Shown: one piece after another, positions 622-62,748 of the stretch | How positions within the stretch are numbered: position 1 is the stretch's first letter | Layout of the letters: each line of letters opens with the position of its first letter | Origin: a virus | DNA: 64,000 bases | Direction: 5' to 3' (one strand) | IMG/VR virus record: IMGVR_UViG_3300036985_006490 | Coordinates: 1-64,000 of that record | The notes under the pieces: generated by a model | Databases searched by the model: none | Told to the model about the DNA's origin: nothing | What the model saw: the letters and a program-made list of their open reading frames with translations, nothing else | Program-made: the position numbers and the translations under genes

Positions 622-1242
622 ATGGAATTTTTAATTACAGAATCTCAATTAAGGGCACTTCTTACAGAAGAAGAGAAATCGATGCTTGGAACCTATATGA
701 AACGATTAAATACATTTACAAAACAAATTGTAAATCGGGCGTTCAAATCATACGGGATTAATTTAAGGATGCTTCTAACTTGGGGTACTGCAGTAGGTGG
801 ATTGGTACTTCCATTAGACCAATTTCTAAGAGACCAAAATTTCAATTTAACCGAAGACCAAAGAATGTTGGTTTTAGCTGGTTTAGCATTTTCATTATTT
901 TTTGAGACAAGAAGACCAACAATGAAATTATTTTCAGTGATTAAAGAAGAAGGACTGGAAGAAATTTTCAAAGTTGGGTTAAGAAAAGGAACACAATTAA
1001 AAAATGCCTTCTTAAACTTTATGTCCTCTGTGGGAGCGGGTTCTGTCGCTTTTATTGACACGATAGCATACAGTTTCATGATACCTATCATTACAGATAT
1101 TCAATCTGTCCTTATGGAAACACAAGATATTGATGAGGCGGCAATTTTGATTGCGGAAAGATTGATTGCGTCAGGTGTTGTATTGATGAGTTCTCAGGCT
1201 TTAATCGAAACAGTTAAGAAAGTTTTAGAAAAATTAAAGTAA
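622..1242 (+). CDS. ITESQL-leader protein with hydrophobic segments (putative virion internal or membrane protein)
   Basis: N-terminus MEFLITESQLRALLTEE; TATTTAT at 609-615. Confidence 0.7.
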   Translation: MEFLITESQLRALLTEEEKSMLGTYMKRLNTFTKQIVNRAFKSYGINLRMLLTWGTAVGGLVLPLDQFLRDQNFNLTEDQRMLVLAGLAFSLFFETRRPTMKLFSVIKEEGLEEIFKVGLRKGTQLKNAFLNFMSSVGAGSVAFIDTIAYSFMIPIITDIQSVLMETQDIDEAAILIAERLIASGVVLMSSQALIETVKKVLEKLK

Positions 1243-1243
1243 G

Positions 1244-1630
1244 TTAATCTTTAACGTCAACCAAATTAACAATTTTTTTACAAGTTACAGAATAGTCAAG
1301 TCCAAAAACATTCAGAAAATTTGACAATAACTCTTGTATTTTATACCTAACTTCAAGATGTGGATCGGATGTTGATGTAATTGGAGTTTCTTCTCCAAAA
1401 TATTTTTTGAGTGTTCCCCAAAATCTATCTGATTGTTCATTAGATGGTAAGACATACAAAGTATATTCAATATACTCTTTCTTTTCTCCAAAAGTGATAT
1501 AGTAGTCTATTCCTGTAAGTTTTACTTTGAAATCAGTTTCAAAATTGAAATTGTCCTCGGCAAATAGTTGAAAGGTATGATTCTCCAAAAATTTATTTAT
1601 TCTATCCCACAACTTATCTGACTCTTCCAT
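1244..1630 (-). CDS. Hypothetical protein
   Basis: 128-aa ORF abutting the convergent gene. Confidence 0.7.
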   Translation of the reverse strand: MEESDKLWDRINKFLENHTFQLFAEDNFNFETDFKVKLTGIDYYITFGEKKEYIEYTLYVLPSNEQSDRFWGTLKKYFGEETPITSTSDPHLEVRYKIQELLSNFLNVFGLDYSVTCKKIVNLVDVKD

Positions 1631-1803
1631 ACTATTCTAATTATTTAATTTTGACCACCAATTGGGAACTGTATTGCTATATTAATTTTATTATAAATAC
1701 CACATAACTTTATCTTTGATATATTTATTTATACCAAGATACTATCTGGATGATTTTCCAACGTCTTAGATTTAATAAATGGGATTAATCAAAAAAAATA
1801 AAA

Positions 1804-2106
1804 ATGGCGACAAGAAAAACCGTATTAGACTCTGCTGTTTCAACAGTAAAACCACCAATTACATTTAAGGAATTCTCGAAAGACCCTGTTAAAGGTCTCC
1901 TATTCATTGTGTTAATCGCAATTGGATACCTCTATGTAGATATCAAACTATCAAACAAAGAAATCGTTAGTAAACAAGATACTAAAATCGAATCTTTGGA
2001 AGGTAAGGTAACAGTACTTGTGGACCAAATTCGTAAATCTGATAGTACTTCCGCCTCATTGGCATCAAAAATTTCAGTTCTACAAGAACTAGGTAAAATA
2101 AAATAA
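1804..2106 (+). CDS. Single-TM coiled-coil protein of the lysis module (holin or spanin candidate)
   Basis: TM segment GLLFIVLIAIGYLYV followed by a coiled coil; upstream of the endolysin. Confidence 0.55.
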   Translation: MATRKTVLDSAVSTVKPPITFKEFSKDPVKGLLFIVLIAIGYLYVDIKLSNKEIVSKQDTKIESLEGKVTVLVDQIRKSDSTSASLASKISVLQELGKIK

Positions 2107-2107
2107 G

Positions 2108-59860: not shown

Positions 59861-61247
59861 ACAACTCAATTTTTTCTTTCAATGTTTTTTGAAATTGATT
59901 TGCTATCATCTTTGTGAACTTAACTGTTGGTGAATCTTCCGATTCTCCGTATCTTACTCCTCCACTTGGAGGTCTTGTACTTCTCCCAAGATAATTTAAC
60001 CCTGAAATGTTTGTTATACATTTGTGACCTCCCGAGTTGGCTTGTATCAAATCCCAAGCATTTACACCGATTTTGTCCAAAATCTTCATTTCATCTTCAG
60101 TCAAACTTTTGAAAGATTTTTCCATCATGGTACCAATCTTATCTAAGATTTGTTCACCATTATCCATGAACATTATTTTTTCGCCATATAGGGCTTTGAA
60201 ATCTTTGAATGTAAATCCAATACTTTCAGGCCCAACACTAGTTTCACTCACCCACTTTATTGTTGATAGTGGTACAGTTTTTTGTTTTAATTGGTCTTCC
60301 CATTTACTTAAAACTTCTTGTGCGATTTCCCCTAAATTAACACCTTTGAGTTCTCTATCTTTCTTAAACGGATTACAGGATGCTTGAACAAGTCCCATAG
60401 GCCATGCCATAATTAAAAAATCAGCCTCAGGATTATTTTTATAAGGAGTGTATCTATCATAAGAACCTGGCTTGAACATACTACCTCCACCATATTGGAA
60501 AATAATATTATCAGTTACAGTTGGGAAAGATTTCATTTGTTGAGTGTAATCTTGAGCATTCTTTTGTAACTGATCGGGTGATGCAGCACTTGTAGATTTC
60601 ATCCAAGATTTAATGTTATTTAAAATAGACAATAACGAGGGTTCGGAGTCCATTACCAACATTTCCAAAAACCCTGGTTTATTTTTGAATGCCAATAAAA
60701 GTTTGTTAATAACTAACCCTAATAACATTTTATTGGATTGAAGAGATTTTTCTTTATCGAATCGATATAAATAATTAACAACATCTTCAGGTGTTAAGTT
60801 TTTTCTGGCAAAGTCCGCAGAGTCAACAGTGCTAATCAATAAAATGTCGGATGATGGAAATAATTCTTTTGGTGAAACAATCTGAGAAAGTGTTTCTACG
60901 TTTGAACGTGATTGTCTAAAAGAAGTAGACTTGGTATCTTCGGCACCTGCCTGTCTATCATGGTGGTCAGTATGAATTACAAACATTGGTTTACCATGGG
61001 CAAAATCAACAAGAACAGGCATTGTGTCTCCTTGAGCGTCATTCTTCTTTACTGCAAATTCTTTGTCTCCATATTGAATGATATGGGTATCAACAACATC
61101 AATACCATTGTTTTCCAAATACTTTTTCATGGCAATGGCAGTCGTAACACCGTCCAAGTCTTGATGAAAATAAATTTCTGCTTTGGGATATCTTTTACTT
61201 AACTCTTTTATATCCCTTATTCCGCTCTCCTTTAATATTTTTTTCAT
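59844..61247 (-). CDS. DHH-like phosphoesterase-fold protein with an LKE leader
   Basis: FHQDLDG, VLVDFA, TDHH, SGGH motifs. Confidence 0.7.
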   Translation of the reverse strand: MKKILKESGIRDIKELSKRYPKAEIYFHQDLDGVTTAIAMKKYLENNGIDVVDTHIIQYGDKEFAVKKNDAQGDTMPVLVDFAHGKPMFVIHTDHHDRQAGAEDTKSTSFRQSRSNVETLSQIVSPKELFPSSDILLISTVDSADFARKNLTPEDVVNYLYRFDKEKSLQSNKMLLGLVINKLLLAFKNKPGFLEMLVMDSEPSLLSILNNIKSWMKSTSAASPDQLQKNAQDYTQQMKSFPTVTDNIIFQYGGGSMFKPGSYDRYTPYKNNPEADFLIMAWPMGLVQASCNPFKKDRELKGVNLGEIAQEVLSKWEDQLKQKTVPLSTIKWVSETSVGPESIGFTFKDFKALYGEKIMFMDNGEQILDKIGTMMEKSFKSLTEDEMKILDKIGVNAWDLIQANSGGHKCITNISGLNYLGRSTRPPSGGVRYGESEDSPTVKFTKMIANQFQKTLKEKIELSKTNN

Positions 61248-61278
61248 TGAAATTTTGTCAACCCAATTTAGAAACTAT

Positions 61279-61650
61279 TTAATATTTCAATGTTACGAGA
61301 TATTTCGACTTATTTATCAAAGCCAACATTTCATCTCGAATATTCAACAAATCAGTATCGTATCTCGAATCAAGTTGGTCTGAAAAACTCACCAAAAATT
61401 CTGTTATTCCATCCATAAAATTTTGAATGCTAAGTGATGATATATCTTGAAACATAAGAGCAAATTCAGGTTCGAACTCAGGTCTTCCATATTTACCCAT
61501 CATTGCCTCAGTAAAATCATCTATTAAATCTCCGAGTCCGTCATATATTTTTCCATAAGTTTTGTGTTTAGCATCTCCAAATGTTTGCCAATGTAAAAAC
61601 TTCCATTGTAATTGTATCTGTACTAATTTTTTAATAAATTCTTCTTTCAT
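61279..61650 (-). CDS. Ferritin/Dps-like protein (DUF5856-like)
   Basis: LHWQT...AKH...G..YD....D.F.E..MG; RDEML...K..YL.TL. Confidence 0.8.
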   Translation of the reverse strand: MKEEFIKKLVQIQLQWKFLHWQTFGDAKHKTYGKIYDGLGDLIDDFTEAMMGKYGRPEFEPEFALMFQDISSLSIQNFMDGITEFLVSFSDQLDSRYDTDLLNIRDEMLALINKSKYLVTLKY

Positions 61651-61662
61651 AGTTGTATTTTA

Positions 61663-62748
61663 TTATACTCCAGGAATAGGGTTTAATTGGCCCAAAAGCA
61701 GATTCTTGAGAAATTTAGCAAGTGGATCCATCACTTCACCACTACTTGAAGAATTTGCTTCGGTGTTTTGTGGTTGTGATGGCTGTGATTGTTGTGATTC
61801 TTGTCCTTGTGATCCTTCAGGGAATTCCTGATTAAAATATTCTTTGGCTTGAGGTGTGGACTGATACTCTTCAAGTTTTTTCATAAATTGTTCATCTCCC
61901 ATTTTTTTAGAAATTTCCTCAACTCCCACATAATTACCTAAACCAATATAGTCCAAAAATCCTAACCACCATTTTGTTGATTGCATTAAAATTCTAAGTC
62001 TTCTACCATCTGAAGACCTAAATAATCTTGGAATACCTCCAAAAAAAGTTTGACTTAAAAATCCAGGTTTAGACAATGCCGCGGCGTCAAATATTTTACT
62101 TGTTTTAAGAAATTTTTGAATTACAGGAATATTTCTTTGAAGATTTGCCGGAGATGGGGCTTGTAATAATACTTTTAATCTACTTTGAAGCCCGACACTT
62201 TTTTCACCAGCCCTTCCTAACAAAGTAATATAATCCATCAATGCGTTTTTCATACCTTTGAAAGGTCCTAAAGGTATCATGTCTAAAACTTTATTTACTT
62301 TTTGTGCCCATCCATTTGCTCCTCCCGCAGCCTGTAAAAATTTTCCAACAGGTCCAGATTCTTTGGATAATACCCTAAGAGTGTCAAGTGCGGCATCGTA
62401 TTGTTTACTCCCTTTCGCAGCGGTTTGTGCGGTTTTTAAAGCTGATTGTAATGCCTTTGTACTTTTTGATCCCAATTTTAACGCTCCCATTACTGGTTTT
62501 GCCACCGCATCTCCAGCGTATGGAATGGCCGAAACTATACTTAAAACGCCAAATAACATATCCCCTTGGACAAAATAAGAAATACCATTTACTATGTCTA
62601 CTATACCAGTTGGGTCAGCTAAACCTAATATTTCCATGGCAGTATTGTACCATTCCTCATTTAAAGTTTCTTGCTCTGTGTCTTCGGAAGGTCTATAAGT
62701 TTCTTGAAGTCTGTTTAGTTGACTTTCAGTAATAATAATTTGAGACAT
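61663..62748 (-). CDS. ITESQL-leader protein with a pre-toxin-TG-like hydrophobic hairpin
   Basis: MSQIIITESQLNRLQE; LGLADPTGIVDIVNGISY..QGD...G.LS.VSAIPYAGD. Confidence 0.7.
   Translation of the reverse strand: MSQIIITESQLNRLQETYRPSEDTEQETLNEEWYNTAMEILGLADPTGIVDIVNGISYFVQGDMLFGVLSIVSAIPYAGDAVAKPVMGALKLGSKSTKALQSALKTAQTAAKGSKQYDAALDTLRVLSKESGPVGKFLQAAGGANGWAQKVNKVLDMIPLGPFKGMKNALMDYITLLGRAGEKSVGLQSRLKVLLQAPSPANLQRNIPVIQKFLKTSKIFDAAALSKPGFLSQTFFGGIPRLFRSSDGRRLRILMQSTKWWLGFLDYIGLGNYVGVEEISKKMGDEQFMKKLEEYQSTPQAKEYFNQEFPEGSQGQESQQSQPSQPQNTEANSSSSGEVMDPLAKFLKNLLLGQLNPIPGV

Follow-up and report, generated by a model that had tools for sequence, protein, structure and literature searches.

Candidate capsid-targeting tags on at least 28 mostly unrelated proteins in a T4-like jumbo phage

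The first 64,000 nucleotides of IMG/VR virus record IMGVR_UViG_3300036985_006490 (positions 1 to 64,000, hereafter the window) contain at least 28 genes whose products begin with short, recurring peptide tags that lead into mostly unrelated cargo sequences at an (I/L)-x-E motif. We favor the explanation that these leaders are T4-type capsid-targeting propeptides acting on a greatly enlarged cargo set, and consider it more likely than not; the phage probably loads a large and fast-changing set of proteins into its capsid. A sequence-only reading of this DNA had proposed such a portable capsid-targeting peptide, and every computational check suggested along with it came out in favor of the proposal.

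Under this explanation, the tagged proteins would be made late, from the class of TATTTAT promoters that also serves the head-assembly genes. The short terminal tag, formed by a beta-like MK-hydrophobic stretch and an amphipathic helix, would dock each protein onto the scaffolding core while the prohead forms. A gp21-family prohead protease would then cut after the Glu of (I/L/V)-x-E, both where the tag ends and where modules join within longer proteins, and the cargo would be freed inside the head, carried there and probably ejected with the DNA. Interchangeable N-terminal tags (classes A-F) and C-terminal copies of a tag named RIK would supply a single pool of cargos that turns over quickly. 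That the proteins dock to the core, are cleaved after Glu, reside in the virion and are ejected or act as effectors is inferred by analogy with T4.

Portable tags and the motif that ends them

Conservation of the tags was assessed in the record (G000), its complete relative G002 and 93 related viral loci, which yielded 221 class B and 81 class A matches. Nearly all matches are N-terminal (219 of 221 for class B and 77 of 81 for class A), and the unique proteins carrying them are spread over many cargo clusters (153 proteins in 123 unrelated clusters for class B; 70 in 40 for class A). When each cargo cluster is represented by a single protein, most of positions 1-20 of class B are conserved at 2.5-4.3 bits (position 13 at 1.7), position 21 (P2) at 1.3, Glu22 at 3.8 and Gln23 at 1.45, and background is reached from position 24. 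The conservation of positions 6-20 is partly by construction, since they belonged to the DNA pattern with which many loci were retrieved; positions 1-5 and 21-24 lay outside that pattern. Position 20 is I, V or L in 120 of the 123 representatives, position 21 is variable, and Glu22 is present in 115 of 123. The sequence-only reading had the tags end in I-x-E, and class B conservation indeed stops exactly there. T4 gp21 cleaves by an L/I-x-E rule (PMC9026906), and the class B pattern of a hydrophobic residue, a free position and Glu matches this signature of gp21 substrates. An earlier [IL]-[TS]-E/[SE] motif (a slash marks a candidate cut site) is common to classes A, B and D, and both LTE/SQ and ITE/S occur in T4 gp22 (scaffold) and gp21 (protease). 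Because synonymous codons vary freely while the residues stay fixed (ACA, ACT, ACG or ACC for Thr8; TCN or AGT, from both Ser codon families, for Ser10; with Arg and Leu families switched as well), selection acts on the peptide and not on the DNA.

Natural exchanges of tags place the boundary at the same motif. The cargo encoded at 29277-29585 is 95.8% identical to a cargo of G002, with a class E leader in the window and a class B leader in G002; the DNA alignment loses its identity after TATTTAT and regains it precisely at the I-x-E codons. A cargo starting DPKVGTGKK follows VINE/S behind leader B in the window, and follows EIDE/A inside a 477-amino-acid (aa) protein of a related locus (L062). 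Likewise, a module called 'KRR' is found after GINE/S behind leader C (genes at 40510 and 40856), again after a second GINE/S inside the product of 40856, as a stand-alone gene after MKYIITE/ or MKFIITE/ in two relatives (L051 and G004), and after YILTE/S inside an 814-aa open reading frame (ORF). The same modules, whether behind different leaders or inside longer proteins, always stand directly after (I/L)-x-E.

The core of class C, [ED][ED]-I-x-R-I-K-x-L-M ('RIK'), is nearly confined to protein ends: a loose regular expression finds 24 C-terminal, 17 N-terminal and 8 internal copies, where about 73% would be expected to be internal. N-terminal copies are followed by G-I-N-E, and [ILV]-x-E immediately precedes 11 of 15 unique C-terminal copies (P=2.5e-7 against a per-position background of 1.8%). 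The T4 model predicts this arrangement, in which an address tag can be removed from either protein end and its cut site always faces the cargo.

Outside the window, at 78670-80136 of the record (L007:14670-16136), lies a gene for a 488-aa, highly acidic, low-complexity protein with N-terminal I-x-E motifs, an internal class B-like stretch (SLRLTEDELIDMIEQIVLEQ) and a C-terminal RIK tag after VISE; the C-terminal tag is kept in G002 and in a 321-kb relative with terminal repeats (G001). This protein is a candidate prohead core protein, and BLASTP found no similarity between it and the scaffold. Two candidate cases of mimicry were rejected. The RIK tag resembles the scaffold C-terminus (FLRMKDLM) by regular expression, but the hidden Markov model (HMM) of the tag does not retrieve the scaffold; an HMM test of the class B helix as a mimic of the scaffold N-terminal EEIxxLVKESLSE/Q was negative.

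Class B is also widespread beyond the related loci. When 1.84 billion representatives of 50%-identity clusters in public data were searched with a 30-column class B profile, 8,762 matched at E<=1e-3, of which 1,125 reached E<=1e-10. In the 148 best matches, about one in ten motif copies is internal, tandem or C-terminal. A literature search did not find the tag motif, and the papers on capsid targeting and prohead proteases that it found do not treat this tag family.

The 25 genes listed by the sequence-only reading are real ORFs, all with the N-terminal peptides described for them; genes on the minus strand had been given by their low (stop-codon) end, and their leaders lie at the opposite end of the ORF. 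Three further tagged genes (24348-24653, 29277-29585 and 49366-49824) bring the total to at least 28 in 64 kb, and two of the three carry further tag types (classes E and F), giving at least six N-terminal classes, A-F. Leader HMMs scanned against relatives and the six-frame translation of the record, as that reading had suggested, matched almost only N-termini. In the 163-kb record they returned 12 matches for class A (E 1e-5 to 1e-7), five for class B (E 1e-9 to 1e-12) and six for class C (E 1e-7 to 1e-10), the exceptions to N-terminal position being an internal class A copy near 19724 in the 814-aa ORF and weak look-alikes in the 488-aa acidic protein (78.7-80.1 kb). An unbiased all-against-all comparison of N-terminal 12-mers recovered the same classes, and pairs scoring >=28 were 15 times as frequent among N-terminal as among internal Met-started 12-mers. 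The tagged genes of the window are as follows (TM, transmembrane; nt, nucleotides).

622..1242, plus strand: class A (MEFLITE/SQL), 206 aa; hydrophobic segments in the cargo; TATTTAT 6 nt before ATG
11696..12193, minus strand: class D (MSKRFVLTE/DEKDSIKKLYMIE/Q), 165 aa; cargo 99% identical in G002, other leader in G001
15198..15482, minus strand: class A (MLKVIITE/NQY), 94 aa
17023..17736, minus strand: class C (EELNKMKYLLGYQRGMVISE/Q), 237 aa
17748..18383, minus strand: class C (EELNKMKGLIHAKAGTVISE/Q), 211 aa
18426..20870, minus strand: 814-aa protein with an internal class A tag (DYILTE/SQLKRIVE/Q, about aa 394, near 19724); the downstream part matches a stand-alone leader-A gene of G004
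21868..22398, minus strand: class B, 176 aa; C-terminal TM segment in the cargo
24348..24653, minus strand: degenerate class A paralog (MKYQINQSRL, with Gln in place of Glu), 101 aa
24637..24981, minus strand: class A, 114 aa
26181..26552, minus strand: class D (MNKNFNLTE/SEKSQILKMHE), 123 aa
26592..27593, minus strand: class C-like (SEELKRIHEITYGKKIIEE/Q), 333 aa; phage lysozyme cargo with a weak, sub-threshold peptidoglycan-binding match
27621..27938, minus strand: class A, 105 aa; in a small acidic four-gene family
27985..28389, minus strand: class A, 134 aa; SET-domain cargo
28755..29264, minus strand: class B, 169 aa; modelled as leader helix 9-23, disordered linker and globular cargo (AlphaFold2)
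29277..29585, minus strand: class E (MNRSFSKIRHIQEANQRLEKRLVENVITE/T; MNRSFSKIRHIQE...VITE), 102 aa; same cargo with leader B in G002
29788..30378, minus strand: class A, 196 aa
30381..30623, minus strand: class A, 80 aa
32192..32575, minus strand: class A, 127 aa
32629..32946, minus strand: class A, 105 aa
33347..33799, minus strand: class B, 150 aa
33867..34163, minus strand: class B, 98 aa counted from the ATG at 34163
39887..40198, plus strand: class A, 103 aa
40218..40502, plus strand: class A, 94 aa
40510..40851, minus strand: class C (MNLQEDIDRIKEVMGINE/G), 113 aa; 'KRR' cargo module
40856..41488, minus strand: class C, 210 aa; two 'KRR' modules joined at an internal GINE/S
41545..42228, minus strand: class C, 227 aa
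48483..49361, minus strand: class B (…VINE/SDPKVGTGKK), 292 aa; same cargo inside a longer protein after EIDE/A in L062
49366..49824, minus strand: class F (MRDLIRKILHEE), 152 aa
61663..62748, minus strand: class A (MSQIIITE/SQL), 361 aa; hydrophobic, Gly/Ala-rich cargo

The claim that the cargos are mostly unrelated holds, as the 28 proteins fall into 24 families (blastp, E<1e-3), including one with four members and one with two. With regard to the individual cargos named in the sequence-only reading, the SET domain (E 8e-12), the lysozyme and the TM segment of 21868-22398 were found, and the 'ParB-like' domain was found in no window protein. The peptidoglycan-binding match of the lysozyme protein (26592-27593) is weak and below threshold. 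Searches of the cargos and their neighbors against Pfam and PHROGs gave almost nothing except SET, lysozyme, OmpA and an SbcC-like protein; an ESM Atlas search with the 361-aa cargo (61663-62748) gave unnamed viral clusters only, and cluster members are named 'hypothetical protein' throughout. Many cargos are small, acidic and without a known fold, and cargo lengths range from 65 to 490 aa, with folded enzymes among them. Homologs of 19 of the 28 cargos are present in G002 and of 5 of the 28 in G001, which still keeps classes A and B. The tags are kept as the cargos turn over.

In the AlphaFold2 model of the 169-aa class B protein (28755-29264; 19 sequences, mean predicted local distance difference test score 80), a helix at residues 9-23 is followed by disorder at 24-49 and a confident globular domain at 50-165, and the class B tag is thus predicted to be an appendage outside the cargo fold. 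Foldseek matched this globular cargo weakly to the DNA-binding C-terminal domain of T4 MotA (E 0.026, TM-score 0.5 on the target), a likeness that serves as a lead only.

Head genes, promoters and genome context

The sequence-only reading called for a gp21-like protease, and PF03420 was detected in all five large tag-bearing relatives (E 1e-23 to 1e-26), as was the gp23 capsid protein (PF07068). The G002 protease (encoded at 140410-141126 of G002) shares 34% identity with T4 gp21, including the LNHP and SSRG stretches. For the phage studied here, the genes for protease and capsid protein are inferred from this collinear relative. The cut motif had also been expected in capsid or scaffold proteins. 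The T4 gp23 site LTE65/A66 aligns with LINE/A(S/T)S in G001 and G002, with Glu and Ala invariant, and the gp67/68-like core protein, the scaffold and the protease itself contain many L/I-x-E/S sites.

As the sequence-only reading had noted, tagged genes sit behind TATTTAT: of the 25 genes, 20 have the heptamer <=31 nt from their start, and the remaining five are directly behind such a gene. Its spacing to the ATG has two modes, 4-6 nt and 14-21 nt in these genes (13-21 nt for the second mode across the window). TATTTAT is found upstream of 45 of 223 genes, compared to a median of 11 when heptamers of equal composition are counted, and is concentrated in the window (39 of 107 genes, versus 6 of 115 in the rest of the record). 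Since it also precedes head-assembly genes (terminase, portal, core, protease and scaffold in G001 and G002), TATTTAT is probably a late promoter. Early-only expression of the tagged genes, which the same reading had named as contrary to its proposal, is therefore unlikely. Stand-alone units, each consisting of a terminator (GC hairpin plus T-run), TATTTAT, ATG, leader and cargo, are densest at 24000-43000, and terminator-like hairpins occur at 27 sites, where 9.6 +/- 3.5 are expected.

Several details of these units were observed as well. TATTTAT often lies 4-6 nt before an ATG that has no Shine-Dalgarno sequence (e.g., 27939-27955, 30624-30640 and 41489-41505); should it act as a -10-like element of a late promoter, many of the late mRNAs would have no leader or almost none. 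The base preceding TATTTAT is never T. Near-identical terminator-plus-promoter cassettes (AACCCTCAC.CAAAAGGTGGGGGTTTTTCATTTCC..TATATTTATCA.T) stand before two class C genes, at 41489-41560 and 42229-42300, and the cassette hairpin recurs at 36371-36395, which suggests that whole expression cassettes have been duplicated.

The window is the initial 64 kb of a 162.8-kb record with a CheckV completeness of 49%, and is AT-rich (28-36% G+C). The record is collinear with the complete 326-kb G002 from about 193 kb round to 31 kb, and the window appears to belong to half of a T4-like phage genome of about 326 kb. The SbcC-like protein is 87% identical to the G002 copy and 59% identical to the G001 copy. 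The capsid protein of the lineage is of the T4 gp23 type, with its nearest cultured matches in a Microcystis phage and Flavobacterium phage immuto (each 42%) and in Rhodothermus phage RM378; the record therefore belongs to a jumbo-phage lineage that is T4-like but distant. A 24-kb stretch compared with cultured phages by Megablast found no match. That the host is one of the Bacteroidota is no more than a guess, prompted by the match to a Flavobacterium phage, a DUF5122 propeller and the absence of Shine-Dalgarno sequences.

Other genes of the window include two adjacent minus-strand genes (6496-8301 and 8345-9571) encoding proteins of 601 and 408 aa, the first approximately 24 residues of which are alike (MAFARPFSYNPGT.IPGTEQVGSL); the 408-aa protein is the DUF5122 beta-propeller, and the pair look like paralogous fiber or receptor-binding proteins with a common attachment end. 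An 89-aa ORF on the plus strand (14679-14948) repeats about 30 residues from the start of a 390-aa protein whose gene lies 125 kb away, at 139747-140919 of the record (MKIGFIG.GKLGKDAAEVM), and looks like a truncated duplicate. Three untagged genes (24994-25818, 43916-44833 and 49862-50671), with paralog pairs in the record, encode proteins starting (F/V)(A/C)G(C/D)S(F/Y/W)T..G, which we take to be typical of SGNH/GDSL hydrolases. One tRNA-Met (CAT) gene is located at 58808-58880 on the minus strand.

Weighing the explanations

Several points weigh against capsid-targeting propeptides. (I/L/V)-x-E is short and common, occurring at 1.8% of positions, and class A conservation runs a few residues past ITE/S, which would mean that part of the recognized element stays on the cargo or that the real cut is elsewhere. 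By eye, the tags (MKYIITE; MKKIIRLTESDL..VIKE) have no sequence likeness to the T4 peptide MKTYQEFIAE and share with it the type of motif only, and in HMM tests the tags showed no significant similarity to scaffold or core proteins. Searches of cultured phages with the class B leader by tblastn gave no match, and the 90 of 160 kb of Flavobacterium phage immuto that were checked are without tags. PF03420 and PF07068 were not found in this 49%-complete record, which the missing half of the genome explains, since in G002 the two genes lie at 136-146 kb, within the part absent here, and most leader genes of G002 are 60-120 kb from the head module. Finally, some cargos have TM-like segments.

Some of the same evidence bears on an explanation that we regard as unlikely, in which the tags dock to, or are recognized by, some partner that is not the prohead (a phage modifying enzyme, a chaperone, another protease or a cellular location, for instance the membrane) and I-x-E is part of the recognition or a coincidence. 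A cationic and amphipathic class B helix, tags without detectable similarity to scaffold or core proteins, and leader genes distant from the head module would all suit such a partner, but the exact stop of conservation at I-x-E, the position of the motif after N-terminal and before C-terminal tags, its presence at module joints and the promoter common to head genes would be left unexplained. It is quite unlikely, in our estimation, that the proteins enter the prohead and are cut there but act within the head, as auxiliary core or scaffold proteins or in DNA condensation or size determination, or are degraded and expelled like gp22, gp67 and gp68. Such a role would fit the many small, acidic cargos of no known fold, the core-like look of the conserved 488-aa acidic protein with its several tag-like motifs, and the T4 core proteins, which are cut at many L/I-x-E sites (PMC9026906). 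However, structural parts are usually conserved, and here cargo turnover is very fast, with 5 of 28 shared with G001 while the tags are kept; the enzyme cargos (SET, and lysozyme with its weak peptidoglycan-binding match) make more sense in the host, and the diverse internal proteins of T4 are described as ejected and defense-countering (PMC3012670).

Two further explanations concern peptide tailoring and nucleic acids. One conserved leader with hypervariable sequence downstream resembles multi-precursor systems for ribosomally synthesized and post-translationally modified peptides (RiPPs), so that the tags might be RiPP-like leader peptides, as in prochlorosins, with the downstream sequence as the tailoring substrate; the cargo sizes and folded enzymes described above speak against this, as does the lack of a constant enzyme neighbor of the stand-alone units in the window, and we consider it very unlikely. 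It is extremely unlikely that the 5' ends are kept for nucleic-acid reasons, such as translation of late mRNAs that are leaderless or lack Shine-Dalgarno sequences, or gene conversion of promoter-proximal cassettes. The 4-6 nt spacing of TATTTAT to many ATGs without a Shine-Dalgarno sequence, the AT-rich leader codons and the near-identical promoter-terminator cassettes at 41488 and 42228 are in line with it, but the freedom of synonymous sites, including codon-family switches for Ser (TCN/AGY), Arg and Leu, largely refutes it. In addition, many genes with the same promoter-ATG spacing have unrelated N-termini, and tags are also internal and C-terminal.

Building on the capsid-targeting explanation, we tentatively raise a more far-reaching possibility, which is doubtful: that combinatorial addressing sorts dozens of proteins into the head of each virion, by means of at least six interchangeable N-terminal tags, each next to a protease site, of which class C RIK is also used at the C-terminus. 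The tags might then set position, copy number or order of release, and modules and polyprotein chains would be shuffled at protease joints. If this is true, the roughly 8,800 class B clusters would be among the largest families of virion-delivered proteins and would form a sequence-readable catalogue of candidate host-takeover and anti-defense effectors. On the capsid-targeting explanation itself, which the natural tag swaps and the polyprotein joints open to direct testing, the 23-residue motif would be a marker, readable from sequence alone, of proteins carried into hosts by an abundant aquatic jumbo phage lineage, pointing to thousands of candidates for effectors of the first minute of infection, among them anti-defense and host-takeover proteins as well as wall-degrading enzymes. 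The four-protein targeting trick of T4 would have been expanded into a modular many-tag system, which would offer short natural tags for packaging, and joints that a protease can cleave, to the engineering of phage capsids into carriers of proteins.

Comparison with known systems

The closest parallel is the capsid-targeting sequence (CTS) of T4, an N-terminal peptide of 10 residues that directs IPI-III and Alt to the scaffolding core and that gp21 then removes (PMC3012670, PMC9026906, PMC5694885). Among T-even phages, the CTS is the only conserved part of highly diverse ejected, defense-countering proteins (PMC3012670, PMC9026906, PMC5694885), and it has been suggested to be an evolutionary mechanism for loading various proteins into the capsid (PMC3012670, PMC9026906). 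In both systems a short N-terminal peptide ending in L/I-x-E is common to otherwise unrelated proteins (IPII and IPIII start MKTYQEFIAE/A); in the lineage described here, relatives encode a gp21-family protease, and the cut site of their capsid protein is conserved at sequence level. T4 Alt is processed at both ends (PMC9026906), and its C-terminal processing would have a counterpart in the C-terminal RIK tags. The differences are considerable, with at least six N-terminal classes here (class C RIK also being C-terminal) as opposed to essentially one in T4, and at least 28 tagged genes per 64 kb as opposed to four. The class B tag is 23 residues long with two candidate cut sites (after Glu9 and after Glu22), the cargos are mostly not small basic proteins, and tandem and internal tags produce polyprotein-like chains. 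The present system is described from its sequence.

The polymorphic ip loci of T-even phages likewise combine a conserved tag with rapidly exchanged cargo, which has been read as an arms race with host defenses (PMC3012670, PMC9026906). Here, however, one tag (class B) has thousands of cargo clusters in metagenomes, the tag classes themselves are swapped on one cargo, and the lineage is a distant one, with genomes of about 320 kb and 42% identity to the nearest cultured capsid protein. Phages phiKZ, 201phi2-1 and SPN3US also package many proteins in the head, where a gp21-related protease cuts after Glu at a short motif, and their head propeptides have several cut sites and are inferred to target the protein into the prohead (PMC5694885, PMC9026906). 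Those propeptides are mostly longer than 100 residues with no shared portable tag, their motif is S/A/G-x-E or A-x-E in place of I/L-x-E, and the rest of their genomes is not T4-like. Outside phages, the cargo-loading peptides of encapsulins are short N- or C-terminal peptides that address unrelated enzymes into an HK97-fold shell; they are not removed by a protease, have another consensus, belong to cellular nanocompartments and have no homology to the tags described here.

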